Shown here: positions 4,639-64,000 of the stretch, piece after piece
Layout: each line of letters opens with the position of its first letter
Position numbering within the stretch: position 1 is the stretch's first letter
Source: Candidatus Komeilibacteria bacterium
GTDB taxonomy: Bacteria > Patescibacteriota > Patescibacteriia > UBA1558 > GWA2-36-10
Length of the DNA stretch: 64,000 nucleotides
Assembly (NCBI GenBank): GCA_018656065.1
Contig: JABHZY010000024.1
Coordinates: 5,227-69,226, forward strand
Direction: 5' to 3'
Notes under the pieces: generated by a model
The model's database searches: none
Seen by the model: only the letters and a program-made list of their open reading frames with translations
What the model was told of the DNA's origin: nothing
Translations under genes and position numbers: made by a program

Positions 4639-5445
4639 ATGGAACTTTCAATTGTAATTTTAAATTATAATAATAAAAATTTAGTCAAAGAACTTTTAAA
4701 GAATTTGACAGAATTAAATATTTCATATCAGTATGAGATTATTGTAGTTGATAATGCTTCTTATGATGGCATAAAAGATATTATTAAAGAAAAATTTCCA
4801 AATATTAAATTTATTCAGAGTGACAAGAATGGCGGTTTTGCTTCTGGTAATAATCTTGGCATTAAAGAAGCTCAGGGTAAGTATATTATGATTATGAATC
4901 CTGATTTAGCAATTTTATCTGACGCTATAGATAAACTTTATCAATATATGGAAAATAATCTTGAGGTGGCTTTGGCTGGACCAAGATTAATTAATGCTGA
5001 TAAAAGTGTACAGCCATCTTGTACCACATTACCAGATTGGAAGCTACCAATGTACAGACGCACATCTTTAGCCAATACTAAAGCTGGGAAGAAATGGTTA
5101 GATAAATATTTAATGAAGGATTTAGATCATTATAAAAATAATTATGTCCCAGCTTTGTTTGGAGCTTGTTTAATTTTTCGTCGTGATGCGCTAGATAAGG
5201 TGGGTTTATTAGATGAGCGCTATTTTATGTATTTAGAAGATTTAGATTGGTCTCGTCGTTTTTGGCAGAATGGCTATAAAGTGGCTTATGTTGGCGAAGC
5301 TGAGATTATCCACTTACATCGTCGTCAATCAGCTGCCCAGGGGCTTTTGAAGACATTATTTTCCAAAACAGCTCGTAATCATATTATTAGTTTTGTTAAA
5401 TATCTCCTAAAATTTAAGGGTCAGAAATTACCTAAAATTTCTTAA
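4639..5445 (+). CDS. family 2 glycosyltransferase
   Basis: MELSIVILNYNN...VVDNASYDG and MNPD motifs. The ATG at 4639 sits just after the upstream stop and is preferred to the track start at 4603. Confidence 0.85.
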   Translation: MELSIVILNYNNKNLVKELLKNLTELNISYQYEIIVVDNASYDGIKDIIKEKFPNIKFIQSDKNGGFASGNNLGIKEAQGKYIMIMNPDLAILSDAIDKLYQYMENNLEVALAGPRLINADKSVQPSCTTLPDWKLPMYRRTSLANTKAGKKWLDKYLMKDLDHYKNNYVPALFGACLIFRRDALDKVGLLDERYFMYLEDLDWSRRFWQNGYKVAYVGEAEIIHLHRRQSAAQGLLKTLFSKTARNHIISFVKYLLKFKGQKLPKIS

Positions 5446-32216: not shown

Positions 32217-32309
32217 ATTATTATAATTCAAAAAATTTACTGTTTTTACAGTAAATCTGTATATATTTTAGTAAATTATAGCTTAAAAGTCAACTTATTT
32301 TAGTAAGTT

Positions 32310-32610
32310 AAAAACCCTGTCAGAGTACGAAGAAGCTGAAAGGGGGTTCAGCAGCTCGTTGATCACGAAGTGATCCTCTGACAGGGTGTGTCGTGGTGGA
32401 CCTTGATTAGGTTCCGCTCCGCTCTGATCGTGTGGCAGCGCTAGGCAATTTATTACCTAAATCAAGGTCCAACTATATTAATAGGGTCATCGGTGGAGGT
32501 CTGCTATAGCTGCTGGATCTAAAAGATCCATTGGCTTGGGTGCGTACACAGCCACAGCCACAGCCTCATGGAGGAGAGAAAGACACATCGATGACCCAAG
32601 AACATATAAC
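32310..32610 (-). ncRNA. orphan GC-rich structured RNA D1 (about 300 nt, three domains); strand tentative
   Basis: Three domains: an 11-bp stem 32315-25 / 32376-86 closing a three-way junction; a 15-bp stem 32398-412 / 32455-70; and a 12-bp stem 32484-95 / 32586-97. On the minus strand it is preceded by TTGACT-17-TATACT and ends in U5. One G.U in the third stem favours the plus strand instead. Confidence 0.45.
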
Positions 32611-32616
32611 CGAGCC

Positions 32617-32645
32617 AGTATATATTATATACTAAAGATAGTCAA
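32617..32645 (-). promoter_or_regulatory. candidate promoter of RNA D1
   Basis: TTGACT(32645-40), 17 nt, TATACT(32622-17) on the minus strand. Confidence 0.4.
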
Positions 32646-32661
32646 TATCTAGCAAATAAAC

Positions 32662-33120
32662 AAAAAAAAGTACCGGTCCCCCGCGTGAAATACGAGGGAC
32701 CGGCGAGAAAGGCTGCTACGAGCAAGCGTCGACGGGTTGAAGTATATTCTCTCCAGTTGGGACAGGATACCCCGGTCGGAGTTTGAGTCAACAGACAACA
32801 TGCTGGGGTCGCAAATCCCAGCGCTCCTTGAAACGGTCCTTGAAGGACCAGGTGCTTGCTTGCAATAGCAGCCACTTACAGTGGCCATCGCATTTTGATT
32901 GAATAGATCTGAGAGAGACGCCGGCGTTCCGTAGAACAGGTGTGATATGCTAGTCAAAGGCGCTAGCAGGCACACTGATGGTCTTGTCTCCCTATCCAGG
33001 GCAATCGTAAATTGATGGTCACTACCATCGTGTCGTATCTCCGTATTCTCGGACTTGTTTTTCCCTCCTAAGAAGTGTATTATGACACGCTGGCTTTAAA
33101 ATTGATGAACCCTTCTTGAC
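32662..33120 (-). ncRNA. orphan GC-rich structured RNA D2 (about 460 nt), family unknown
   Basis: Minus-strand promoter at 33127-56. Many local hairpins, including GAUGGU/ACCAUC, GCUAG/CUAGC, GCCAC/GUGGC, GGUCC/GGACC and GCUGGG/CCCAGC. An 11-bp terminator stem (32673-32703) has a U.G valid only on the minus strand and is followed by U8. The ORFs in this region run through the terminator. Confidence 0.55.
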
Positions 33121-33373: not shown

Positions 33374-33413
33374 GTTTTTCGTCACTATCACTCTAGAGCC
33401 AAGGAGGGCCACA

Positions 33414-33626
33414 ATGCCCTGTACACTCAGCAAAGGTCAAGATGTTCGGAATATTGGAACTGGTGAAGCCCATATTATCACTGATATGCGCAAAACTCCT
33501 CCTCGTCAAATTGTTGGAGGTTGGGGGTCTGATGTCGTAGAATATACTCACATCCAGGTAGATGGGCAAACTAACAACGATGGGCATCCGGTTTGGCAAG
33601 CCTCTGGTGATTTCGAAGAAATCTAA
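33414..33626 (+). CDS. orphan GC-rich small protein (70 aa)
   Basis: Strong SD AAGGAGGG 5 nt before the ATG. Protein-like composition. Own terminator. The GTG at 33300 in the track is an unlikely start. Confidence 0.7.
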   Translation: MPCTLSKGQDVRNIGTGEAHIITDMRKTPPRQIVGGWGSDVVEYTHIQVDGQTNNDGHPVWQASGDFEEI

Positions 33627-37072: not shown

Positions 37073-37573
37073 ATGAGAGTACCTATTAGAAAAGGTGGTA
37101 AATTTACTCATATTAAGTCTGATCCATATATTACTCAGGCTAAATTTGATGAACTTAGTAATAAATTAGCTAGATTAAAAGAAGATATTCAACCTGAATT
37201 AGCTAAAGAGGTTAAGAGATTAGCTTTGATGGGTGATTTTTCTGAAAATGCAGCTTACCAAATAGCTAAAGGTAGATTACGCAGTACAAATTATAAGATG
37301 GATAAAATAGCTAAGCAAATTGCTGAAGCAAAAATTATAAAAACTGATCAAAATACTCATGCTATACAAATTGGTCATCAAGTAAGTCTAGAATGTAATA
37401 AAAAAATAATAAAATATCGTATCCTTGGTTCTTCAGAAACCAATCCTACTCAAGGGACAATATCTCATCAGTCTCCGCTTGGTAAATTACTTTTAAATAA
37501 ATCTGTAGGAGATACTATAGAACTTAAACTTGATGAGCAAATAGTAAATTATAAAATAATAAAAATAAACTAA
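37073..37573 (+). CDS. greA: transcription elongation factor GreA
   Basis: 166 aa. N-terminal coiled coil with the MGDFSENAAYQ motif and a C-terminal FKBP-like domain. Confidence 0.9.
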   Translation: MRVPIRKGGKFTHIKSDPYITQAKFDELSNKLARLKEDIQPELAKEVKRLALMGDFSENAAYQIAKGRLRSTNYKMDKIAKQIAEAKIIKTDQNTHAIQIGHQVSLECNKKIIKYRILGSSETNPTQGTISHQSPLGKLLLNKSVGDTIELKLDEQIVNYKIIKIN

Positions 37574-37576
37574 AAA

Positions 37577-37604
37577 CCGCCCTGAGCGTAGTCGAATGGG
37601 CGGT
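37577..37604. terminator. bidirectional terminator
   Basis: CCGCCC...GGGCGG hairpin flanked by A5 and T runs. Confidence 0.7.
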
Positions 37605-37611
37605 TTTCTTT

Positions 37612-38271
37612 TTACTTAGTACTTATTACTATCCATTGGCCACTTTCATCTTTTTTCATTTCTAATTTACTAAATTTAGCAAACATTTTTTCTAATTCTA
37701 CTTTGTCATAAAAACTATGAGGTATATCTTTTTCGGGACCAATTAAAGGAATGGCTGTATTTTTATCTAACATCTTATGTTCTTTGAAAGTTCGCCAAGT
37801 CTTTAAACATTTCTTGTCCGGAATAGTTATAAAAGTTTTACCTCCATCCATAAGAGCAGTATAAATTTCGTTTACTAATTTTTGTAAATCTTTTTTAAAA
37901 CCATGATTAATTGTTCGAATAGATATTATAAGGTCGTATTTATTAGGGATTATTTTCATATTAAACATATCAGCCTGTTTTATATTCCCTACTTTAAGCC
38001 CTAAAACCTCTTTGGTCATAGCTACTGAGGTTTCACTAAAATCAATCCCATCCACTTTAAAACCCAAGGAAGCTAAATAATTTAGATACTGTCCTTTACC
38101 ACAACCAATATCAAAAACATAACTATCTTTAAAATTTGTTTTAGATACAAATTCAACAAATAAAGGACTGATACCTTCTATAAAACAACAAGGTACCACT
38201 CCATCATTCATATCTTGCCAACTTTCATCTTTTTTATTAAAAGCTTTGTAGATTTTATCCCAATTTGCCAT
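37612..38271 (-). CDS. class I SAM-dependent methyltransferase
   Basis: Motif I VFDIGCGKGQY. Confidence 0.8.
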   Translation of the reverse strand: MANWDKIYKAFNKKDESWQDMNDGVVPCCFIEGISPLFVEFVSKTNFKDSYVFDIGCGKGQYLNYLASLGFKVDGIDFSETSVAMTKEVLGLKVGNIKQADMFNMKIIPNKYDLIISIRTINHGFKKDLQKLVNEIYTALMDGGKTFITIPDKKCLKTWRTFKEHKMLDKNTAIPLIGPEKDIPHSFYDKVELEKMFAKFSKLEMKKDESGQWIVISTK

Positions 38272-38322
38272 ATTTTTATTATAACTTATTGAAGAATAAA
38301 AACCGCCTATCTGGCGGTTTTC

Positions 38323-38442
38323 TTATTTGGTTTTTTTCTTAGCTTTTTCTTCAAGCATCACTCGTTTTGCTTCTAGTCTTTTAGCTGTTTTTTTAGAGCT
38401 AGATTTTTGTACTCTACCAACAGCATGTCTTCTTTTTGCCAT
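38323..38442 (-). CDS. unlisted small basic protein (39 aa) MAKRRHAVGRVQKSSSKKTAKRLEAKRVMLEEKAKKKTK
   Basis: ATG-to-TAA ORF below the track cutoff. Immediately followed by the CCGCC/GGCGG terminator (38302-17). About 45 percent K+R. Confidence 0.45.
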   Translation of the reverse strand: MAKRRHAVGRVQKSSSKKTAKRLEAKRVMLEEKAKKKTK

Positions 38443-38513
38443 ATAAGTGTCATTTATTATTAATTACAGAGGTATACTAGCTTGTTATTGGAATAAAATC
38501 AAGGCTGCGGGGC

Positions 38514-40151
38514 TTATTTGCCAATAATACATTGATTCTTCTCACAAAGTGGATATCCAGCTCCACAGTCAATTGGACCTTCACAACTAGCCGTACAAGG
38601 TGCGTCAATTGGATCAGGAGCATATTTTTTATTAATGTAATCTGTAGGATGACAAATTCTATCAGGCACGCAATCATCAACTGTTTCACACATATGCGAA
38701 AGAACATAAACTAAATCTACAGGTTTATTTTCATCTGAATTATCCTCTTGGTTTGAATCATCATCAACTTCTTCAGCTATATTTTCTAATTTTTTACGAA
38801 ATACAATAGCATTAGGTAAAGATCTGCCTGGTCCAATCATATAAGAATTATCATAATATAAAGCCGAACTACCACCGCCATCTAAATTTAGTGCTTCGGT
38901 AGCTCCTAAAGTTTTAAAAATCTCAGCAAAGTCTATCATATTAGCTGACCTAGCAATAACTAAATAAATATTCTGATCATCATAACCAATGCCACCTCTA
39001 GTTGCTTTTGAATTATAACTACTATAATGAGGCTCAGAATTTACAACTACTACACCATTTTCTATTAGGGAAGGACGATTTGAAATTCCTGCTATTTGAG
39101 TTGTGTTCCTATAAGTTAGCCAAGCTCCTATATTAGATAAACCTTTGTTTGGTCTATGAAAATGAAAATATTCACCGTTGGCTCCAGCGGCCATCCATGA
39201 GCCGTTGTGATAAAAACCAATATCTCTATTTATAACTATATTTAAATTACTATTTAAAACTGGAGATAAAAAAGAATTTTTAGTGCTTGCGCATTCAGCA
39301 TAATCTGGCGGACAAAAGTATGTTCCATTTATACCAATTTCAGCTGAGTTGTCTTGAACATAGGAAGCTAATGATTTAGTAGCGCAATCTCCATCGCAGT
39401 CTGCACTAATGGCAGTATCAGTTATCATCAAATATTTATCTTTAGTTAAAGTAACTAAACTAATATCAAAAGAACCTCTGCTGGTATCTATAGTGTATCT
39501 TTTATAAGATGAATATTCATCCAGTATTTCAGAATCTTGTATTATTGAAATTTTATCTAGATTGGCATTTGTGATACCTAAGCTCAAATACCTCATAATC
39601 TGATAGGCAGCTGGTCCATCTGGCATATAATATCTTTTATTATCAACTGGATTTATATACCAAGCTTCTCCATGAGCCTCTACCTGCAGGAGAATTTTAC
39701 CACTTAAATCACTGGCTAAATTATTATCATATATAGGTTTTTCTTCTCCTAAAGGATTTTGATTATTTCTTACTTCTTGACCATCACTTAAACCATCACC
39801 ATCAGTATCATAATTATAAGCATCGGTTCCTAGTCCATCTTCTAATTTATTACAAAGACCATCGCTATCTGAATCTAAACATTCAAAACGATCTTCAAAA
39901 CCAATTGGAATCTTAGTTAAGTTAGTATTAGTAATTCCTAGACCTAAGTCTCTCATCATTCCATAAGCAGCATTACCATCAGCCATATACATTCGACGAC
40001 CATCAGATGGTTGAACATACCAAGCCTCGCCATTTTCCTCTACTTGAAGCAAAATACGACCTCTAAGCCTAGTTTCAGCTGGAGCAGCCTCTGTAGACCC
40101 AATAGTAGTGAATAATATTAAGCCCATAATAACTAATAAAAGCTTTTTCAT
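38514..40151 (-). CDS. secreted multidomain protein with a phosphodiester glycosidase (DUF2233/NAGPA-like) domain
   Basis: Signal peptide. Two repeats of about 55 aa (ILLQVE..GEAWY...LGITN.NL.KI). Thrombospondin type 3-like DxDxDG repeats. INGTYF and LDGGGSSALY motifs. Cys-rich C-terminus. Confidence 0.7.
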   Translation of the reverse strand: MKKLLLVIMGLILFTTIGSTEAAPAETRLRGRILLQVEENGEAWYVQPSDGRRMYMADGNAAYGMMRDLGLGITNTNLTKIPIGFEDRFECLDSDSDGLCNKLEDGLGTDAYNYDTDGDGLSDGQEVRNNQNPLGEEKPIYDNNLASDLSGKILLQVEAHGEAWYINPVDNKRYYMPDGPAAYQIMRYLSLGITNANLDKISIIQDSEILDEYSSYKRYTIDTSRGSFDISLVTLTKDKYLMITDTAISADCDGDCATKSLASYVQDNSAEIGINGTYFCPPDYAECASTKNSFLSPVLNSNLNIVINRDIGFYHNGSWMAAGANGEYFHFHRPNKGLSNIGAWLTYRNTTQIAGISNRPSLIENGVVVVNSEPHYSSYNSKATRGGIGYDDQNIYLVIARSANMIDFAEIFKTLGATEALNLDGGGSSALYYDNSYMIGPGRSLPNAIVFRKKLENIAEEVDDDSNQEDNSDENKPVDLVYVLSHMCETVDDCVPDRICHPTDYINKKYAPDPIDAPCTASCEGPIDCGAGYPLCEKNQCIIGK

Positions 40152-40154
40152 ATT

Positions 40155-40754
40155 CTATTCAACAAAAGAAAAACTCTTAACTACTTTTTCAAAGATAGCT
40201 TCACTAGCCTCATTATCATTAGAAACATACAATAATCTATATGTGACATCGCCCTTTACTAAATGATATTCAATCATTTTTTTATCGTCAGTTTGTATTT
40301 CAAAGCGTGTGGCTGCTTGTCCAGCAACAGTAATTTCTTTAGTAATATAATCATCTTTGTCTTTAGCTAAATCTTCTAAGCTAATTCTAGACTTTTCTAT
40401 TACAATCTGTCCTAAATATTCAGACATTAAGCCCATAAGCCCATCCTTGTCTATAATTAAATAATCATCGATTAATTCATTGCTACCAGCAGTTTCTATA
40501 TCAGATTTCATAAAATGTTGCCAATACCAACCATCTGGTCTCATAACTGTGTAACCCATAGCCTTGTTTTCATATAAGACATATTCCTCTTCATCATCTG
40601 TAATAGCTAGATTATGATCTTTAATAAGGTCTTTTACTTCTTCAGCTTCTGTTATTGTATCTTCTGCTTTCTCAAATTCATCAACAACTTTTGAGCTACA
40701 AGCTGCGCCCATTAAAAAAGTAAGAACGAATAAACTTAGTAATATTTTTTTCAT
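40155..40754 (-). CDS. putative lipoprotein (199 aa)
   Basis: Signal peptide ending FLMGAAC. Confidence 0.55.
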   Translation of the reverse strand: MKKILLSLFVLTFLMGAACSSKVVDEFEKAEDTITEAEEVKDLIKDHNLAITDDEEEYVLYENKAMGYTVMRPDGWYWQHFMKSDIETAGSNELIDDYLIIDKDGLMGLMSEYLGQIVIEKSRISLEDLAKDKDDYITKEITVAGQAATRFEIQTDDKKMIEYHLVKGDVTYRLLYVSNDNEASEAIFEKVVKSFSFVE

Positions 40755-40779
40755 GGTTTTTTTATTAATTTATAATTTA

Positions 40780-41568
40780 TTAATATTGTCCTTTGCCTTT
40801 ATATTTTCCACTACGTACAGCTTCAGCTCCGCCTATCTCTGCCTGATTTGTTTTATGGTAGGCTTCAGAGGCAGTGAATTCAGATAAAATTTTCTCAATC
40901 ATTTCTGGCTGATCTTTATAACGTTCACGTAAAAAATCTTCTGCTGCTAAAAACTTAACTTCCATTGAGACTAGCTCTGGCTTCTTTTCCTTCATTGCTT
41001 CCCAAAAAGCTTCAGCTCTATCAAGACGTAAATCAAGTAAGAGGAAAGCTACTTTAGTTAATCCCTCGGCATGAGCAAGCTCTATTGAATTTTCAACATC
41101 ATCCTGAGTAGTTTTAGTCTTATCAAGTATTTTTATATTTTCATTACCTAAATTTTCAGAAGCATTAGTTTCTCTTTCAAATACTTCCATCATAGGTCCA
41201 GCTTCACTTAAAGAAGGATTATCGGCTGCATGTTTATCAAGAGCAGCAGCACGTCCTGCGGCAAAAATAACTAGCTTTGGAGGAACCCCCTTTTTTACTA
41301 GATCTTCATAATATTGCGCTGCAGCCAATGTTACGGCATTACCTCCACCAACAATGGCATTTTCACCGTCTTTATCTAAGTCTAAGTTCCTTTCTGCTGT
41401 TCGCCAGCCTTTATCATCAACTTCTTGAATAAGACGCGTAGGCTTCCATTTTTCTTCTCCTTTGACATCTACACGTTCAATACTATGCCCAGGAACAACA
41501 ATGACTTCTGCCTGATACAATTCTGACGGTTCTTGTTCTGCAGATAATTTTTCTCTATTAAACTTCAT
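40780..41568 (-). CDS. hypothetical protein (262 aa)
   Basis: ORF with no signal peptide. The ATG lies 6 nt after a TACAAT -10. Family not recognised with confidence. Confidence 0.55.
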   Translation of the reverse strand: MKFNREKLSAEQEPSELYQAEVIVVPGHSIERVDVKGEEKWKPTRLIQEVDDKGWRTAERNLDLDKDGENAIVGGGNAVTLAAAQYYEDLVKKGVPPKLVIFAAGRAAALDKHAADNPSLSEAGPMMEVFERETNASENLGNENIKILDKTKTTQDDVENSIELAHAEGLTKVAFLLLDLRLDRAEAFWEAMKEKKPELVSMEVKFLAAEDFLRERYKDQPEMIEKILSEFTASEAYHKTNQAEIGGAEAVRSGKYKGKGQY

Positions 41569-41574
41569 AGCTTT

Positions 41575-41607
41575 ATTGTAGCTTATTTTAGAAAAACAAA
41601 AAAGCCC
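41575..41607 (-). promoter_or_regulatory. conserved 33-nt promoter motif, copy 1
   Basis: Minus strand GGGCTTTTTTGTTTTTCTAAAATAAGCTACAAT. Nearly identical to the copies at 43270 and 43941. Confidence 0.55.
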
Positions 41608-41621
41608 AAAAATTTGGGCAA

Positions 41622-41802
41622 AAGAAAAAAGATTGAGAGGGGTTGGTGTGAAAGAAAAAGTGTTGATGGGGTTTGTTGTTGTGTGATAAGTGTGCAGTGT
41701 TGGGGATGCACTTTCTACTGCCTAACTTTTAAGCTTCAGAAAGCACATCCACAATCACTATACTTATCTTCCCTACGATTTCTTTCTACTCTCAATCTTT
41801 GA
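41622..41802 (-). ncRNA. orphan rod-like RNA E (about 180 nt), family unknown
   Basis: TTTACA-16-TATTAT promoter (41836-41809, minus). 11-bp closing stem 41629-39 / 41789-99 followed by U6. 13-bp apical stem 41704-16 / 41748-60 with two wobble pairs valid only on the minus strand. The 3' arm is CA- and C-rich. Confidence 0.55.
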
Positions 41803-41863
41803 GTCCTAATAATAACATATCTATAAAATATGTAAAGTCTAAGTTATACACAAGGTGTCCATT

Positions 41864-43243
41864 TTAATTCACTACTATTACACTATTTAAATCAGGATCT
41901 CCACTAACAGTATAAGTGCCATAAGTATTAATTTTCCAGACAAAGTAAGCTTGACCATTATCATCGGCTACTATTATTTGTCGTTTTGCTGCGACTACTC
42001 CTGGACCAGCTAAGGACAAAGTCATTTCAGTACCTGGGACAGTGGCTATAGCAGCGTAAATTTCACTGTATTCTCCTGGCTTAACATGTTCAAAAGAAGT
42101 TTGCATTACTATACTAAGTTCTTGTCCATCAAATTCTCCAACTAATCCACTAGTTTCCGTTTCGGTCATTGGATCAAGAGCTGTACCACTACTTAAAGGA
42201 GTTTCCCAAATTTGAACAAAACCCCAACTTAATGCTGTAATACCTTCGTAAGGACCATAATTTGTTATTCGATTACTACGCACCTCTACGGTCTCTGACC
42301 CTTCTTCAGCATCTGTGTAAGGATCATTGATATCTAAATAAGTTTGACCATCACCCTGATGAATCCCAGTAACAGTTACCATATGTCCACCAGTAGATTT
42401 ACCATCTGCATTAGCAAACTTTATACGTAATTCAACAGAAGCACCTTTTTCTAAAGCCTCTCTAATAGGATCTATAGTTTCAATGCCGTGTGTATCACCT
42501 ACTTTTGTAGTTCTAATTGGCAAGCCATGTCTAGCTGCCCAAAGATTTTTACCAGTTACAAAATCATCAGACTGAACACCATTAGCCATATTCCATTTCA
42601 TATCTTCTTTCAGCTCCTCTATCAATTCTTCTGGTTTTATAGATTTGTCTTCAGCATCTCCATGTTGATTTATGAGCGAGATTAAACCATTGGCTGCTGC
42701 GGTAGGAGCGCACTCACCTTTTTTTTGATCTATATCAGGTACATTCTCTTGAGTTATTTCAATTAATCCGTCATCAGCATAGACCAAATTAACTCCTAGG
42801 CCTTTCATAGCTTCTTCTGGATTGGTAATGGTGTCCAAATCCATTAACTCACTTAAATCAGATATTTTTATACTTACATTTTTACTAACACTTTCATCAT
42901 CAAGTTGGACTAAAATATTTTGTTCTTCAACAAAATTATCTGGCGCTTTAAAATATACTTTATTTCTTTTATTAGCTTTAGCTAAGACCATCATATCTTT
43001 AACTAGCCATTCAGTAGCTTCAAATATTCCGTTGTTATCTGAATCTATGGCTAAACTTAATTTACTTCTACTATCTTCACTTGCTAAAAAGTTGATTCCT
43101 AGGGCAGCATTGCCATTATTATAGCTAATAAGGCTTAAATCTGAGCCCAAAACAGCTATATCAGGCTCCTTATCCTGACCTTTTAGTAAGAATATAGCTA
43201 TTATAACTATAATTATTACAATAATTGGTATTATTTTCTTCAT
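41864..43243 (-). CDS. membrane-anchored surface protein with a papain-like (C39-like) cysteine peptidase domain
   Basis: N-terminal TM helix. KKGECAPTAAANGLISL (candidate catalytic Cys) and STGGHMVTVTGI...NDPY (candidate His/Asp). Confidence 0.6.
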   Translation of the reverse strand: MKKIIPIIVIIIVIIAIFLLKGQDKEPDIAVLGSDLSLISYNNGNAALGINFLASEDSRSKLSLAIDSDNNGIFEATEWLVKDMMVLAKANKRNKVYFKAPDNFVEEQNILVQLDDESVSKNVSIKISDLSELMDLDTITNPEEAMKGLGVNLVYADDGLIEITQENVPDIDQKKGECAPTAAANGLISLINQHGDAEDKSIKPEELIEELKEDMKWNMANGVQSDDFVTGKNLWAARHGLPIRTTKVGDTHGIETIDPIREALEKGASVELRIKFANADGKSTGGHMVTVTGIHQGDGQTYLDINDPYTDAEEGSETVEVRSNRITNYGPYEGITALSWGFVQIWETPLSSGTALDPMTETETSGLVGEFDGQELSIVMQTSFEHVKPGEYSEIYAAIATVPGTEMTLSLAGPGVVAAKRQIIVADDNGQAYFVWKINTYGTYTVSGDPDLNSVIVVN

Positions 43244-43269
43244 ATATTTATATTAAAGATTATAATTTT

Positions 43270-43302
43270 ACTATAGCTTATTTTAGAAAAACAAAAAAGC
43301 CC
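43270..43302 (-). promoter_or_regulatory. conserved 33-nt promoter motif, copy 2
   Basis: Minus strand GGGCTTTTTTGTTTTTCTAAAATAAGCTATAGT. Confidence 0.55.
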
Positions 43303-43340
43303 TGAAGTAGGGCTATAGAATAATATTAGAACTTTTTTAA

Positions 43341-43934
43341 CTAAATAATTTTAAATGCTATTAAGATAGCAATAATAATTAAACTTGCAGCGGCAAGTTC
43401 TTTTTTAAATCTTAACTTATCTACTCTTTCTGCAAAATAAATTGCAATTGATACTTGTATGAGTGTAGCTACATATATGCCTATGATAACTAAAGTTTTT
43501 TCGTAGAAATTACGCTCTAAAAAAATAGGCACAATCACAATAATATCATCCAGTATAGTTAAAAAAGATATAACAAAGCCTAGACCTATTAATTCCAGAA
43601 AACGAGCATTACTTATCTTTTTTATTTTGGCCACTTCTTTGGCTGTTTGTTTTTTACGCTCTGGCATAAAAAGACCAAAATAAATACCAATAGCTAAGGT
43701 AATAATAATACCAGCGATAATATAACGTACACCCGGAACACTTTTAATAGCTTCTGAAAATAAAATAGCCAAAATTATAGCTGCGGTAAGTGATAATAAT
43801 GTACCAATTGAAAAAGCTACTTTACCGAGCCTTGTTTTGGTAAGTGATGCAATGACTGGAATTCTAGTTAATGTATCATCAAAGCTAGCTACTGCTTTTA
43901 CTAAAAAACCTAAACTTATATTTTTGAATATCAT
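43341..43934 (-). CDS. integral membrane protein (197 aa, about 6 TM helices)
   Basis: Hydrophobic throughout. The ATG lies 6 nt after a TATGAT -10. Confidence 0.6.
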   Translation of the reverse strand: MIFKNISLGFLVKAVASFDDTLTRIPVIASLTKTRLGKVAFSIGTLLSLTAAIILAILFSEAIKSVPGVRYIIAGIIITLAIGIYFGLFMPERKKQTAKEVAKIKKISNARFLELIGLGFVISFLTILDDIIVIVPIFLERNFYEKTLVIIGIYVATLIQVSIAIYFAERVDKLRFKKELAAASLIIIAILIAFKII

Positions 43935-43940
43935 GACTGT

Positions 43941-43973
43941 ATCATAGCTTATTTTAGGGAAACAAAAAAGCCC
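43941..43973 (-). promoter_or_regulatory. conserved 33-nt promoter motif, copy 3
   Basis: Minus strand GGGCTTTTTTGTTTCCCTAAAATAAGCTATGAT. Confidence 0.55.
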
Positions 43974-43979
43974 CTAGGA

Positions 43980-44008
43980 TTGACAATATTAGTATAAAAT
44001 AGTTATAT
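43980..44008 (+). promoter_or_regulatory. promoter of the 139-aa gene
   Basis: TTGACA, 17 nt, TTATAT. Divergent from motif copy 3. Confidence 0.55.
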
Positions 44009-44058
44009 GTAGTTGTTAGTATAGTTCTTGTCACAAACCTCGGAAAGAGGGTGTCATT

Positions 44059-44478
44059 ATGTACTGGAAAAATGATGCTGAAGCAATCGCATTTTTACAA
44101 TCGCGCGGACAACTAATCCCTATGGATCCTAAAGACATCAGAGAAGTTGCCACATTAATTCTTGATTTAGAATTAAAGAGGGCTAGAGAAGCTGAAGAGG
44201 CAGCTGAAAAAAGAACTGCTAGAGAAAAAAGAGGTCTCCGAAATTGGGATATAATCAAAAGAGGTCGCGAAGTTGTAGAAGCTGAAGAGGCAGCTGAAGA
44301 AGCTCGCATCAGACAGGCTGCAGCCGATGAATTTAAGCGACGAAAAGAAGCTGAGGAGGCGGCTAATCGTTGTTCATCATGCGGTAAAATTAAAAAAACC
44401 TGTAACACATGCAGTACGACGGTATGTTGTGGAACAAACATAAGTGGGTACTGCTGGCATTGCTGGCATGATGATTGA
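44059..44478 (+). CDS. orphan GC-rich protein (139 aa): charged helical region plus Cys-rich C-terminus
   Basis: SD AGAGGGTG before the ATG. EAEEAAE repeated three times. Tail CSSCGKIKKTCNTCSTTVCCGTNISGYCWHCWHDD. Own terminator. Confidence 0.65.
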   Translation: MYWKNDAEAIAFLQSRGQLIPMDPKDIREVATLILDLELKRAREAEEAAEKRTAREKRGLRNWDIIKRGREVVEAEEAAEEARIRQAAADEFKRRKEAEEAANRCSSCGKIKKTCNTCSTTVCCGTNISGYCWHCWHDD

Positions 44479-44479
44479 A

Positions 44480-44513
44480 GAGCGTTCGAAAATTCGGGCG
44501 CTCGTTTCTTTTT
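44480..44513 (+). terminator. intrinsic terminator of the 139-aa gene
   Basis: GAGCGTTCGAA/TTCGGGCGCTC stem with two U.G pairs valid only on the plus strand, followed by a T-rich run. Confidence 0.6.
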
Positions 44514-44619
44514 ATCTAAAATTTACAAACAAAAAATCATCTCAAAAGATGACTTTCTGTTGACAGGGGTGTTGGGACATGATTGGAACTTTTTTTGATG
44601 AAAATGCTTAATAATTGTA

Positions 44620-44979
44620 TTATTTTTGTCTGTCTGATTTCCAATTATTATAATCTACACAGCTTTTACCATCCCAACAAAACTTTTCACCACAAGTACA
44701 CTGCTCTCTATATGATTCTTCTAGACTACACGTATAATCAATATGCCCTTGCATCCCCTCATTTTCAAGCTGTCTTTCACAGCTTGGCGGCGGCGCGCAG
44801 GAAGTAATTGTTTGCCATTCACCTCCACTAATTTTACAATCTATCTCTATATCGCCAGTTAGCTTATTTTTTTTAACTTCTTCTCGTACAACTTCTTCTT
44901 TACTACTATTATATTCTTTCCAAACAAATACTCCTCCAAATATAATAGCTGAAATTAAAATGGATAAAATAATTTTCAT
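44620..44979 (-). CDS. small secreted/anchored Cys-rich protein (119 aa)
   Basis: N-terminal hydrophobic helix. 10 Cys in the mature part. Confidence 0.55.
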   Translation of the reverse strand: MKIILSILISAIIFGGVFVWKEYNSSKEEVVREEVKKNKLTGDIEIDCKISGGEWQTITSCAPPPSCERQLENEGMQGHIDYTCSLEESYREQCTCGEKFCWDGKSCVDYNNWKSDRQK

Positions 44980-45041
44980 AATTTTGATATTTATTTAAAT
45001 AACGTCCTTAGTATAACAAAAAAAAGGTAGTAGGATTCGAA

Positions 45042-46106
45042 CTAAACTATATTCCCACTGGCAATCAACTCATCTTTTTTATAAACAGCCAATATCTGTC
45101 CCGAAGCTACGCCAGCTTGAGATTTTTTAAACTCAGCTATTAGATCTCTCGACTTCGCTCGAGATGACAAAACGATGTCTTGACCAGGCTGTCGATAGCG
45201 GATTTGAGCCTTAGCTTTAAGAGGTAATTTATGCTCCTTACCAAGCCAATGTAAATCAGTCATTTGAACACTTTTGTTGTACAGAGCCTCATCATCTACA
45301 TGACCGACTATAAGTTTGTTATTTTTAATATCTTTAGATACTACATACCATGGACCAGAACCACCAATATCCAAACCTTTCCTTTGTCCAATCGTATAAT
45401 ACCAAACACCTTGATGCTCACCCAAGACATTACCTTTAGTATCGACTATCTCCCCTGTCTTAGGTTTTATTTTTTGTTGTAAAAATATTTTAAGATCTAC
45501 TTTACCAATAAAACAAATTCCCTGACTATCTTTACGGTCAGCATTTGGTAGTTTGGCTTGCTTAGCAATTTTACGAACTTCAGGTTTCTCGATATCGCCA
45601 ATTGGAAAGACTGCTTTGGAAAGCTGGGTTTGATTTAAACCGGCTAGAAAATATGATTGGTCTTTATTTAGATCTTTACCTCTTAGTAAATGAAATCCAT
45701 CCTTATCTTCTTTGACTTGAGCATAATGCCCAGTAGCTATTTTATCAAAACCAAGTTTGATAGCTTTTTCTAAAAACAACTTAAATTTGATTTCATTATT
45801 ACATAAGACATCAGGATTTGGAGTCAGACCTGCCTTATAATTATCAAATATATAATTTACTACCTTGTCATGATATTCTGCTTCAAAATCAAAAGTCTGA
45901 ATAGGCACTTTAAGATGTGCAGCTACTCTATAAGCCATTAAACGGTCTTCTTTCCAAGGACAAGTGCCTTTAACATTCACTTTTTCGGAAAAGTTTTTCA
46001 TAAAGGCAACCTCTACTTCATAGCCTTGTTGTTGTAGTAAATACAAAGCCACAGCGCTATCTACACCGCCAGAAAGCCCTACTAAAATTTTGGTTTTCTT
46101 TGTCAT
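45042..46106 (-). CDS. mnmA: tRNA 2-thiouridine(34) synthase
   Basis: PP-loop VGLSGGVDS and conserved catalytic Cys regions. Confidence 0.95.
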   Translation of the reverse strand: MTKKTKILVGLSGGVDSAVALYLLQQQGYEVEVAFMKNFSEKVNVKGTCPWKEDRLMAYRVAAHLKVPIQTFDFEAEYHDKVVNYIFDNYKAGLTPNPDVLCNNEIKFKLFLEKAIKLGFDKIATGHYAQVKEDKDGFHLLRGKDLNKDQSYFLAGLNQTQLSKAVFPIGDIEKPEVRKIAKQAKLPNADRKDSQGICFIGKVDLKIFLQQKIKPKTGEIVDTKGNVLGEHQGVWYYTIGQRKGLDIGGSGPWYVVSKDIKNNKLIVGHVDDEALYNKSVQMTDLHWLGKEHKLPLKAKAQIRYRQPGQDIVLSSRAKSRDLIAEFKKSQAGVASGQILAVYKKDELIASGNIV

Positions 46107-46787: not shown

Positions 46788-47021
46788 ATGAAAGCACCTA
46801 CCCTGGATTTTCCCAACGACGAAACAGCTGTGATCCTAATGCCCAATTGCCGTATAGCTACCGCTCTGCGCGAATTCCTCTTTGAACATGACTTCCATAT
46901 GAAGTCCCAAGATACTCAAGGAGGATTGATTATTCGGATACCAGCGGACGCGGACATTACTGAATCTAAGGAGCGTCTGCAGATTCTCTATGGCAAATTT
47001 TGCTATAAACAAGGTATTTAA
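46788..47021 (+). CDS. orphan GC-rich small protein (77 aa)
   Basis: SD GGAGGT 4 nt before the ATG. Protein-like composition. 5' UTR of about 75 nt. Own terminator. Confidence 0.7.
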   Translation: MKAPTLDFPNDETAVILMPNCRIATALREFLFEHDFHMKSQDTQGGLIIRIPADADITESKERLQILYGKFCYKQGI

Positions 47022-48589: not shown

Positions 48590-50356
48590 TTAAAATTTGA
48601 TAACTTCACCAGGATCTAAATCCTTAGCTACCCTATCTTCTGTTTTTCTAATTTCTTTGCTTGGTTCTTTAATTTGTTTCTTAACTTCTTTCTTAGTCTC
48701 TACTGGCTTAATTTTAGATTCTTCTCTTTTTACAGAAGGCTTTCTACCTTTTAAAGCGTCTGCTAAAGAAGTAAATTCTTCCTCTTTGCCATTGTCAGAA
48801 ATTATTTTAATACTAGAAGGAGGTGGAACTTTACCAGCCCTAGAAAGATCTAAACATTCTCGACAATAGATAGGCTTTTTAGGATCTGGGTCAAAATTTA
48901 TTGTGGTGTGTTTACCACATAAGTCACAAACTACATTTTTGGTAAAACCTGTGTCTTTTGGTTTGCGTTTTCTTGGCTTTTTTTCTCTGTTAGTAGTTTC
49001 TGTTGTTTTAGAAACAACTCTATCGGCAGTTTTAGCAACTGTGCCAGTGGCTGGTACATTCACATCTTCGTCTCCTCTGCCCTCAGCCCAGCGAATAATT
49101 CTATCTTCTATTACTTCTCTTGGTTTGGCATATCTCTCACGAGTAATATTAATTATTTTATCTTTGACACCTGCAGCCTCTTCGGTCATGGCCACTGGTG
49201 GCAATGTTTTAGCAGAAAAACCCTCTGAAGTAACACCATCAATCATTAATTTAATATAAATTTCAAATTTAGAAAGATTAACTAAATCTTCTTGAGTAAA
49301 AGTTGGAAAAAATTCTTTTTCTAAAAACTCAGCGTCAGCTGCACCAACTCTAAAATTGACTATAGTACCAACATTACCAAACACAGCAGCTGTCATTTCT
49401 TCAGGAACTTGTTCAATATATTGATGGGCAATAATAAGATTTAGTTTATATTTTCTAGCTTCAGATAATATATTAGCAAATGACTCAGTAGCAAAATTTT
49501 GAAATTCATCTACATATAAGTAAAAATCTTTTCTTTCTTCTTCTATAGTATCTACTCTACTCATAGCAGCTAATTGGATTTTAGTAATCATCATAGCTCC
49601 TAGCAAGGCTGAATTATCTTCACCAACTCTACCTTTAGAAAGATTTAACAGCAAAATTTTCTGACCATCCATAATCTCTCTCATATTGAAAGATGATCTA
49701 ACTTGGCCTAAAATATTTCTAATCAAGGCTGATGACAAGAAACGGCCAACCTTATTTTGAATAGGTGCTATGGCCTCTGCTTGAAATCTATCAGGATACT
49801 TACTATATTCATCTACCCAAAAAGCTTTAACAACAGGATCAGATATTTTTTCTACAACTTTTTTCCTAAAAGCTTTATCAGTCAACATTCTCATAATACC
49901 TAAGAGAGTTGAGCCAGGATATTCTAATAAAGCTGAAATGGCGTGATGCAGTACATATTCTAATCTTGGCCCCCAGGAATCAGCCCAAATCTTTTGAAAT
50001 ACACCGATTAATCCCGATACTACCAAATGCCTTTGACTAGCATCTACTTGTTCTAAAACATTAAAACCAATTGGAAAATCCAAGTCAGCTGGATTGAAAT
50101 ATATAACGTCATTAATACGTTCGCGTGGTACAAAATTAATGACTTTTTCTACTAAATCACCATGAGGATCTACTACACAAACACCTTTTCCATCTTGAAT
50201 ATCTTGGATAATCATATTTTCCAAAACAGTAGATTTACCCATGCCAGTTTTGCCAATAAAATACATATGGCGACGTCTGTCATCAGTTTTAATTCCAAAT
50301 TTTACATTGGAATTTCTATAATTTGTTTCAGCAAAAATTGTTATTTTATCATTCAT
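48590..50356 (-). CDS. TraD/VirD4-like (type IV secretion coupling-protein family) P-loop ATPase with C-terminal zinc ribbon and Lys-rich tail
   Basis: Walker A GKTGMGKS and Walker B LYVDEFQNF. CDLCGK...CRECL at residues 477-502. Confidence 0.8.
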   Translation of the reverse strand: MNDKITIFAETNYRNSNVKFGIKTDDRRRHMYFIGKTGMGKSTVLENMIIQDIQDGKGVCVVDPHGDLVEKVINFVPRERINDVIYFNPADLDFPIGFNVLEQVDASQRHLVVSGLIGVFQKIWADSWGPRLEYVLHHAISALLEYPGSTLLGIMRMLTDKAFRKKVVEKISDPVVKAFWVDEYSKYPDRFQAEAIAPIQNKVGRFLSSALIRNILGQVRSSFNMREIMDGQKILLLNLSKGRVGEDNSALLGAMMITKIQLAAMSRVDTIEEERKDFYLYVDEFQNFATESFANILSEARKYKLNLIIAHQYIEQVPEEMTAAVFGNVGTIVNFRVGAADAEFLEKEFFPTFTQEDLVNLSKFEIYIKLMIDGVTSEGFSAKTLPPVAMTEEAAGVKDKIINITRERYAKPREVIEDRIIRWAEGRGDEDVNVPATGTVAKTADRVVSKTTETTNREKKPRKRKPKDTGFTKNVVCDLCGKHTTINFDPDPKKPIYCRECLDLSRAGKVPPPSSIKIISDNGKEEEFTSLADALKGRKPSVKREESKIKPVETKKEVKKQIKEPSKEIRKTEDRVAKDLDPGEVIKF

Positions 50357-60502: not shown

Positions 60503-60877
60503 TTAATCAACTGTTTGTGCGAAAAGTTCACTAAGTACAAATCTAGATACAGCATAGGCAGTTAAAATAATAACTAAACCTACAACGCCTGCGCCAATTA
60601 ACTTTTTGGCTTCATCTACTTTTTCAGAACTTCCATAAGAAGTCATCCATTTGAAACCACCAAATAAGATAATTAAAGTAGTTAATATTCCTAGAAAACC
60701 TAAGATAATGTTAATTACCCCTCCAATGGTTTCTCTTAAAGGTTTTGACCCTAAGGCAATATTAGATGTAGAAAAATCGTCATACCCCCAAGCATTAACG
60801 TCAGCAGGCTGAGCGTTAGCTACATTAGCTGCTAAACTAGGAGCTAATACCAAAGCAAATGTTAATATTTTCTTCAT
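60503..60877 (-). CDS. small secreted two-TM protein, TrbC/VirB2-like (T4SS pilin-like) topology
   Basis: Signal peptide ending ANAQP, then two hydrophobic helices in a 124-aa protein. Confidence 0.5.
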   Translation of the reverse strand: MKKILTFALVLAPSLAANVANAQPADVNAWGYDDFSTSNIALGSKPLRETIGGVINIILGFLGILTTLIILFGGFKWMTSYGSSEKVDEAKKLIGAGVVGLVIILTAYAVSRFVLSELFAQTVD

Positions 60878-63340: not shown

Positions 63341-64000
63341 TTATGGACGAGCCATATTAGCTTTAATTTCATTTTCTATAACTGTTTTATCACGACCATA
63401 TTTAAGGCGTGATAATTCTTTAATAGCCTTAGCTAATTCATAGTTACCTTTTTCTGGTAATATGGGATTAAAATTAAAGGCCGGCGGATTTTGATTATCT
63501 ATTAATAATTTTATATAACAGGTAAATTTTGGCATATTTACCAAATCATATTCCGTTACTACTGGTGCCATTTGTTTAGCTATAACTTCTGCATCATCAA
63601 CACCAATTCTATATGATATCAATGTACCAACATTACCAAAAATTGCATCTTTAACGCTGGTATCTCCATCTTTAACTAACTGAGCTAAAAATTGATGTGC
63701 CAAAACTAAGTTAAGTTTATATTTTCTAGCTTCTGATAATATTATCGAAATACTATCCGTTATATAATTTTGGAACTCGTCAATATATAAATAAAAATCA
63801 TCTCTTTCTTCTTCTGGTGTATCTACTCTACTAAGAGCAGCAAATAATATTTTACCAATCATTATCATACCCAATAAACTACTATTCATTTCTCCAATCT
63901 TACCTTTAGATAAATTAATTATTATTATTTTATTTTCATCCATAGCCTTTCTAAAATTAAAAGCGCTCTTAGTTTGAGAAATAATAGGACGAATAGTATC
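63341..64000 (-). CDS. second TraD/VirD4-like ATPase (paralog of 48590..50356); N-terminal part lies outside the window
   Basis: The frame stays open upstream of the track ATG to the window edge (...DTIRPIISQTKSAFNFRKAMDENKIIIINLSKG). It aligns with LIRNILGQVRSSFNMREIMDGQKILLLNLSKG of the first copy. Walker B LYIDEFQNY. Confidence 0.8.
   Translation of the reverse strand, partial: DTIRPIISQTKSAFNFRKAMDENKIIIINLSKGKIGEMNSSLLGMIMIGKILFAALSRVDTPEEERDDFYLYIDEFQNYITDSISIILSEARKYKLNLVLAHQFLAQLVKDGDTSVKDAIFGNVGTLISYRIGVDDAEVIAKQMAPVVTEYDLVNMPKFTCYIKLLIDNQNPPAFNFNPILPEKGNYELAKAIKELSRLKYGRDKTVIENEIKANMARP

Follow-up and report, generated by a model that had tools for sequence, protein, structure and literature searches.

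A probable orphan gene for a 139-residue protein with a predicted charged helix and a cysteine-rich tail at the edge of a variable island in Candidatus Komeilibacteria

The DNA considered here is a 64,000-nt stretch of contig JABHZY010000024.1 of Candidatus Komeilibacteria bacterium (the window), in which an open reading frame (ORF) of 139 amino acids occupies positions 44059..44478 of the + strand, stop codon included, as read from the sequence and from the list of ORFs; its limits and translation agree with those given in a first-pass annotation made from the letters of the sequence. The predicted product is divided into a helix-loop-helix (residues 1–43), a helix rich in Ala, Glu, Arg, and Lys (residues 44–103), and a tail with eight cysteines and two histidines, Cys8His2 (residues 104–139). 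The ORF is oriented opposite to nearly all of its neighbours and lies at the edge of a cassette-like flexible island. It is probably a protein-coding unit, atypically adapted to its host, and its product would be a small Cys-ligand protein outside every described family searched.

An open frame of this length is well beyond what chance would produce in such AT-rich DNA: none of 20,000 shuffles of the ORF's own bases stays open, and the probability is ~1e-4 per 139 codons. Its in-frame codon score of 0.135 exceeds all the off-frame scores of 46 host genes (maximum 0.056), the scores of the host genes themselves having a mean of 0.39, a standard deviation (sd) of 0.07, and a minimum of 0.176. 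The guanine plus cytosine content (GC) at codon positions 1, 2, and 3 is 0.51, 0.48, and 0.29 in the ORF versus 0.45, 0.32, and 0.20 in the genome, which is the host coding pattern moved upward, with the third position (GC3) well under the first two; in addition, host-preferred codons are favoured (GCT 11/19, GAA 14/18, AAA 9/11, and AGA 7/15). The description of the ORF as GC-rich is correct with respect to its surroundings (42–45% versus ~33%), but the excess is mostly due to amino-acid composition since host codon usage already predicts 39.9% for this protein, compared with the 42.7% seen; the GC3 excess has a z-score of 2.4. A structured RNA instead of a gene was considered and rejected: the region has no match in Rfam, its fold z-score reaches only -2.9 when the terminator is counted in, and the codon-position periodicity is clear. 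From its sequence we infer that the ORF is translated.

The surrounding signals make the ORF look like a self-contained expression unit, composed of a -35 box, a GAGGG motif, host-like codon preferences, and a terminator on the + strand only. The upstream region (43973..44058, +) is particular to this arrangement of the locus and contains a -35-like box, a weak -10, a leader of ~45 nt, a stem-loop, and GAGGG. The TTGACA hexamer of the promoter previously assigned to the gene is present at 43980–43985, but its -10 is poor, the candidates being TTATAT at 44003–44008 (17-nt spacer) and TATATG at 44004–44009 (18-nt spacer), and the site is missing from a consensus promoter scan. GAGGG is located at 44047–44051 with the ATG 7 nt further on. 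This Shine-Dalgarno (SD)-like motif had been described as embedded in a hairpin and it does fall inside a CCUC-GGAAA-GAGG stem-loop (44038–44050), also in the minimum-free-energy fold; however, the stem has just 4–5 bp and there is no sign of a regulatory role for the hairpin. SD-like motifs at -16..-7 occur in 2/49 genes of the window, the 139-aa ORF being one of the two; for this reason the SD of the ORF is to be regarded as an oddity and not as routine evidence of translation, and the translation signal is foreign in style for this host. The strong intrinsic terminator (44480–44503, +) begins 2 nt past the stop codon and consists of a 10-bp stem with 6 G-C pairs, GAGCGTTCGAAAATTCGGGCGCTC, followed by a T-tract to ~44513, GTTTCTTTTT; the claim that it is strand-specific was borne out, because the reverse complement is without a T-tract and carries no terminator.

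The helical region has a repetitive origin. The repeat noticed earlier as occurring three times was retrieved by a repeat search as GAAGCTGARGAGGCRGCT in exactly three copies (44188–44205, 44278–44295, and 44347–44364, +), each coding for EAEEAA, and is absent elsewhere in the 64 kb, with 0.01 chance matches expected. These 18 nt are the core of longer 36-nt repeats at 90- and 69-nt spacing and, because of these spaced repeats, the helical region of the ORF is considered to have arisen through internal duplication. In one sample (L024) a deletion allele was found in which 90 nt are lost in frame between copies 1 and 2; its 109-aa product lacks exactly one 30-aa repeat unit, with both ends intact and the tail unchanged, and the in-frame outcome is forced by the repeat spacing of 90 nt. 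In several assemblies the contigs break at 44305–44323, right past repeat 2, which is consistent with coexisting length alleles.

The single-sequence AlphaFold model shows a helix at residues 6–15 and a continuous helix of ~79 residues at positions 24–102, with a predicted local distance difference test (pLDDT) score of ~80–95. Residues 24–103 include 17 Glu and 4 Asp (21 acidic), 13 Arg and 7 Lys (20 basic), and 16 Ala, with 15 opposite-charge pairs at i/i+4 and sparse hydrophobic residues; as modelled, this segment would be an ER/K-type single alpha-helix rather than a coiled coil. A helix-extended-helix of the SAP/LEM (SAP/HeH-like) kind was also considered for the N-terminus and set aside as a faint lead, with Foldseek giving only E ~5 and no profile matching.

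The Cys-rich module, extending from C105 to H137 (44371..44469, +) and proposed as a metal-binding knot, belongs to the tail sequence RCSSCGKIKKTCNTCSTTVCCGTNISGYCWHCWHDD and follows the pattern C-x2-C-x6-C-x2-C-x4-CC-x7-C-x2-C-x-H, with an extra histidine at position 134. The first-pass annotation counted nine Cys and two His; the spacing and the two His (134 and 137) were right, but the Cys residues are eight (105, 108, 115, 118, 123, 124, 132, and 135), as indeed they are in the pattern written there. Three CxxC pairs, one CC pair, and two His fall within 33 residues of a protein without a signal peptide, and the Cys density of the tail is 23%. The ligands of a zinc knuckle, i.e., at least two CxxC/CxxH and four ligands, are all available (C105/C108, C115/C118, C123/C124, C132/C135, and H134/H137). 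Every recovered copy of the ORF is either identical or differs by the helix deletion, which leaves the tail as it is.

Comparison of the tail with PDB sequences gave a best E of at least 0.05, without significant matches, the weak look-alikes being all metal-binding modules, namely the RBM22 zinc finger (E=0.05), desulforedoxin (E=0.33), and the bL32/bL28/S27a zinc ribbons; no Pfam or NCBIfam profile matched it. When modelled alone the tail has a mean pLDDT of 59 with short beta-bridges, and Foldseek with this model returned non-significant hits (best E at least 1.8), largely to zinc-finger- or zinc-ribbon-containing proteins; the fold search is uninformative because of that low pLDDT. A zinc-ribbon-type metal-binding domain was the interpretation initially preferred. 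Metal binding remains the most plausible reading, as suggested by the Cys/His pattern, but the term zinc ribbon is itself unsupported; classical ribbons have a longer spacer than the x6 that separates the first two knuckles here.

The searches for homologues of the whole protein were equally negative. No homologue was found by a combined k-mer and phmmer search of 5.8 billion proteins or by an exhaustive phmmer search of 1.84 billion representatives; the sequence of the ORF is itself missing from the searched collection, so the lack of a self-match is expected. The full 139-aa protein gave nothing significant against Pfam, NCBIfam, PADLOC, and PDB, and neither did its N-terminal and C-terminal pieces against Pfam and PDB. 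No homologue emerged from tblastn against phage and plasmid records or from peptide-pattern scans of viral contigs and JGI metagenome contigs. The ORF is absent from 80 syntenic loci in related genomes, where no analogous Cys-tailed small ORFs occur except for unrelated Fur-like proteins. A match to PHROG 14117, annotated as a virion structural protein (E=7.7e-4), was discounted: 5/9 segment-shuffled versions of the protein match other PHROGs at E=0.004–0.05, and the match is just ~5-fold better than these controls.

Comparison with known systems reveals partial resemblances only. Zinc-ribbon and zinc-knuckle proteins, such as bL32, bL28, eS31, and the archaeal CPxCG micro-proteins, share with the tail the paired CxxC knuckles in a short segment, and the CSSCG of the tail resembles the CPxCG knuckle of the archaeal micro-proteins; however, the tail has four Cys pairs plus His instead of two pairs, with 6 residues between the first two knuckles, and the module is attached to a helix of ~79 residues, without a significant sequence, profile, or fold match. 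DksA/TraR proteins are similar in size, in the succession of a long helix and a C-terminal Cys-ligand module, and in their cytoplasmic location. In contrast to the ORF, for which one continuous charged helix is predicted, they form an antiparallel coiled-coil hairpin with a DxxDxA tip; in addition, the ORF does not match PF01258 at E<=10 and the CxxC-x17-CxxC spacing is absent. The Fe(Cys)4 site of desulforedoxin and of the N-terminus of desulfoferrodoxin has a CxxCG...VCCG arrangement with adjacent Cys residues like the tail, the interval being x15 versus x14 in the ORF, but the alignment has E=0.33 and the ORF differs in an inserted CxxC, a further CxxC-x-H, and a long N-terminal extension. 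The N-terminal zinc finger of RBM22/Slt11 shows a C-x2-C-x6-C-x2-C spacing identical to that of the tail and a basic spacer (CQTCSKLKNVCQTC versus CSSCGKIKKTCNTC); these are eukaryotic spliceosome proteins and, at E=0.05 and with each stretch alone well under significance, the resemblance is one of spacing only.

A further comparison concerns phage morons, which the ORF resembles as an autonomous promoter-gene-terminator unit in opposite orientation, with atypical codons and translation signal, located in a variable region. The unit organization is present, though with a weak -10 and a GC excess due mostly to amino-acid composition; however, the surroundings are cellular and not those of a prophage, and no homologue was found in phages or viral contigs, so a phage origin is not indicated.

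As for the genomic context, the ORF was recovered by exact look-up on contigs of at least 30 public assembly blocks (up to 448 kb), in the same context and with identical DNA. In the 80 related loci the genes for a VirD4-like ATPase, AMP phosphorylase, and MnmA are kept, and that for GreA comes next in the closest relatives, sometimes after a p199 lipoprotein. Across Komeilibacteria, the gene content between mnmA and greA is highly variable, and this hot spot spans as little as 0.6 kb (L032) and as much as 7.5 kb (window 37573–45042); here it is filled mainly with predicted extracytoplasmic proteins, which are a Cys-rich 119-aa protein, a 197-aa membrane protein, a membrane-anchored C39_2 peptidase, a 262-aa protein, a lipoprotein, and a NAGPA-domain protein. 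In the 80 loci none of the relatives has the ORF, the 119-aa protein, the 197-aa membrane protein, the C39_2 peptidase, or the 262-aa protein.

A second arrangement exists within the species (L013/L014), which is 99–99.8% identical as far as 43972 and then carries different genes, i.e., a methyltransferase, a 210-aa gene, and a 186-aa DUF8412/OmdA gene in place of the ORF. The left boundary of the ORF region is a terminator-tail/promoter module of 28 nt, GGCTTTTTTGTTTYYCTAAAATAAGCTA (43945..43972, -), which drives the gene of the 197-aa membrane protein, and the junction of the two strain arrangements (43972) is the exact edge of this module. Its three copies in the 64 kb, all on the - strand and all in the variable island (41579–41606, 43274–43301, and 43945–43972), directly precede the 262-aa, C39_2, and 197-aa genes, respectively; similar copies are found before genes in the alternative strain (L013 ~2045–2085, 2727–2782, and 5092–5143). 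This distribution suggests that GGCTTTTTTGTTTYYCTAAAATAAGCTA may mediate cassette shuffling by recombination. Differences between strains are also limited to tracts, at mnmA (45384–45929) and at the 3' end of the 197-aa gene (43338–43413): up to 65 single-nucleotide polymorphisms (SNPs) in ~500 nt are present in the former, with a local divergence of ~12–20% and a 357-aa MnmA like that of the sister species L031, and 11 SNPs in the latter; this mosaic pattern therefore indicates recombination tracts between lineages. An insertion with target duplication or terminal inverted repeats was rejected, as the 18-nt inverted repeat at 43951–68/44505–22 and the AAACAAAAAA direct repeat are terminator T-tracts.

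The convergent neighbour of the ORF is the gene for the 119-aa protein (44620..44979, -; region 44528..44979), which has a signal anchor and nine Cys and is provided with its own terminator (44561..44528). It corresponds to an NCBI hypothetical protein of Candidatus Komeilibacteria bacterium and is also an orphan, the search of 5.8 billion proteins having returned only itself. This gene adjoins the ORF on the mnmA side on every examined contig reaching across, and a functional pairing of the two proteins is possible. Just 3' of its stop codon lies an element of ~28–40 nt, CATCAAAAAARGTTYCAAYYATGTCMCA (window 44573–44600, -), present as a single copy in the window and recurring 3' of two genes in the alternative strain (L013 ~783–826 and ~2660–2700); the cassettes of the island may share it as a 3'-end element.

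In the explanation preferred here, for which we see about as much chance of being right as of being wrong, the 139-aa ORF is a genuine, lineage-specific, and possibly acquired gene whose cytoplasmic product would chelate about two metal ions in its tail, carried on a rigid helical spacer whose length varies. The ORF would constitute its own small transcription unit and a lineage-restricted accessory gene of Candidatus Komeilibacteria bacterium. The lack of homologues, the absence from the 80 loci, the breakpoint at 43972, the rare SD, the low codon adaptation, and the opposite orientation all argue for this accessory status and for a recent origin, the gene having probably been acquired or assembled within the variable island rather than inherited. 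In the protein, a short N-terminal helix-loop-helix (residues 1–43) would form the first part; the charged Ala/Glu/Arg/Lys helix of ~60 residues (44–103) that follows would most likely act as a rigid single-alpha-helix spacer, presumably built by internal duplication and variable in length in the population. The 33-residue Cys8His2 tail most likely would fold around two metal ions through interleaved CxxC/CC knuckles, Zn2+ being the most probable metal and Fe a possible one in an organism of anoxic water. The resulting metal knot could offer an interaction surface for nucleic acid or for a partner protein, kept away from the N-terminal module.

Several observations weigh against this explanation. 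No homologue shows conservation of the Cys ligands, and the AlphaFold confidence for the tail is low (pLDDT 42–66 in the full-length model); GAGGG may be irrelevant in a host hardly using SD motifs, and the -10 element behind TTGACA appears poor; the codon adaptation of the ORF is 3.5–4.4 sd under that of host genes and lower than in each of the 46 tested; the antisense strand holds a 136-aa ORF (codon score 0.066), although an open frame is to be expected opposite GAR/GCN-rich codons; and the 2 kb between 43414 and 45383 are identical in all contigs, so purifying selection on the ORF cannot show. The weak -10, the codon score under all 46 host genes, the open antisense frame, and the lack of polymorphism to show constraint, together with the absence of a homologue in any search and with the 43% of the protein that is a low-complexity repeat-derived helix, also favour a young or non-functional ORF, that is, foreign or repeat-expanded DNA open by chance and maybe transcribed, a proto-gene, or a decaying acquired gene. 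This alternative deserves attention but is considered unlikely, since the signals are matched, with a -35 box, a rightly spaced SD-like motif, and a strand-specific terminator directly past the stop codon; the N- and C-terminal parts outside the repeats are open too and display GC periodicity of the coding type or an ordered CxxC spacing; among synonymous codons, those preferred by the host are favoured; and at least 30 assembly blocks carry the gene intact, the sole indel allele being in frame, as forced by the 90-nt spacing. The same architecture could instead carry a redox or iron centre in the tail, such as a desulforedoxin/rubredoxin-like Fe(Cys)4 site, a small Fe-S centre, a thiol-disulfide switch, or a metallothionein-like buffer. 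Desulforedoxin indeed gives the tail its best single alignment (CxxCG-x14-VCCG in the query versus CxxCG-x15-VCCG), the Cys density of 23% is in line with this possibility, and the host comes from oxygen-deficient marine water, going by the names of related metagenome-assembled genomes and samples; however, that match has just E=0.33, no Pfam profile matches the tail, the extra CxxC breaks the desulforedoxin-like spacer, and the Trp, Trp, and Tyr found in the tail are atypical for metallothioneins, so an iron or redox centre is judged improbable.

The possibility of a ribosomally synthesized and post-translationally modified peptide (RiPP), already raised as a core peptide behind a long leader, received no support from tailoring enzymes, leader families, or cleavage motifs. 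According to this hypothesis, residues 1–104 are a long helical leader and residues 105–139 a core modified by unlinked enzymes with thioether, thiazole, or sactionine-type chemistry, and the core might be released by the nearby C39-like peptidase. Long helical leaders are known in RiPP classes such as NHLP and Nif11, and the ORF is similar to long-leader precursors (NHLP/Nif11 lanthipeptides and SCIFF/ranthipeptides) in its long helical N-terminus and short Cys/Ser/Thr-rich C-terminus; in particular, the tail is core-like, with 8 Cys and 9 Ser/Thr in 35 residues, and a Peptidase_C39_2 protein is encoded 0.8 kb from the ORF. However, RiPP precursors normally adjoin their maturase, and the reported lack of lanthipeptide, radical-SAM, and YcaO-type (cyclodehydratase) genes holds for the Pfam-annotated parts of the window (~560–64000), which leave out a few short ORFs as well as the first ~560 nt, part of a glycosyltransferase-type gene. 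Neither LanB/C/M, radical-SAM/SPASM, YcaO, DUF692, or ATP-grasp maturases nor a transporter-peptidase were found in this annotated window, ~43 kb upstream and 20 kb downstream, where the sole ATP-grasp protein is a D-Ala-D-Ala ligase. No NCBIfam precursor or leader model matches at E<=1 and no GG/GA cleavage motif precedes the Cys block, the sequence there being ...KEAEEAANR. The C39_2 gene lies across the strain breakpoint from the ORF and occurs in the alternative strain too, without the ORF alongside, and its product has an N-terminal membrane anchor and is not an ABC-transporter fusion. A RiPP precursor is thus very improbable, and there is scarcely any likelihood of a novel type of ribosomally made Cys-cross-linked or metal-binding peptide of the Candidate Phyla Radiation (CPR), with the tail as its core, an unusually long helical leader, and enzymes encoded elsewhere, possibly exported or processed with the C39-like peptidase and the 119-aa orphan.

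If the protein is made and binds metal, as in the preferred explanation, it would be one more lineage-specific small Cys-knuckle protein in the large pool of uncharacterised CPR genes, with a ligand spacing that matches no curated family and a polymorphic single-helix spacer beneath it. Patescibacteria/CPR genomes commonly encode orphan small proteins in variable islands, and the value of this example for fold and small-protein biology is modest and opens no long-standing question. The useful outcome is a negative one, i.e., the RiPP lead is unsupported in the annotated window, and the gene is assigned to the flexible mnmA-greA interval that varies by strain and species.

Other features were noticed in the window. 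At 32300–33120 (-) there is a block of ~0.8 kb, which may be more intriguing than the ORF, with 43–58% GC in a 33% GC genome, in which no gene is called in public assemblies and which looks like two adjacent minus-strand structured RNA genes. Unit A (~33120 to 32662, -) has a TTGACA-18-TAAAAT promoter, a terminator at 32704..32672 followed by T8, and a fold z-score of -4.95, while unit B (~32610 to 32305, -) has a promoter with TATAAT, a terminal hairpin followed by T5, and a fold z-score of -8.98; the latter includes a 14-bp stem, GGACCUUGAUU(U)AGG/CCUAAUCAAGGUCC, followed by ACCA, whose pairing is kept through base changes in a related species (L033/L111). The two units gave no Rfam match at E<=5–10 and no tRNA or tmRNA with ARAGORN; both occur with promoters and terminators also in L111 (2250–3060), and a metagenome pattern scan retrieved them in these two organisms only.

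The gene alaS has a promoter of its own (TTGACT-17-TAAAAT, window 32232–32293, -), which is conserved with L032–L034 and L042, and a perfect palindrome, TTTACTGTAAAAACAGTAAA, is located between its -10 box and the TTG start codon, which recalls the autoregulation of E. coli AlaRS at a palindromic operator. More generally, a TA[TAC]AAT box ending 3–14 nt before the start codon is found in 10/49 genes, versus 4.8+-2 by shuffling, with six boxes ending exactly 6 nt before it, a pattern that points to leaderless or very short-leader mRNAs where a gene comes first in its operon.

Related species have kept two small + strand ORFs that are absent from some public gene calls: a 77-aa ORF (46788..47021), between the 164-aa and AMP phosphorylase genes, resembles L031 3164..3448, and a ~71-aa ORF (33411..33626) resembles L033 15094..15306 with 48.5% identity by tblastn. 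Finally, a second, shorter VirD4/TraG-like gene is present at 63341..63943, the segment 63497–63963 having ~67% nucleotide identity to part of the 588-aa VirD4-like gene (48590..50356), and a type IV secretion system (T4SS)-pilin-like gene (60503..60877) is located near it; these genes may be parts of a CPR type-IV-secretion-like apparatus.

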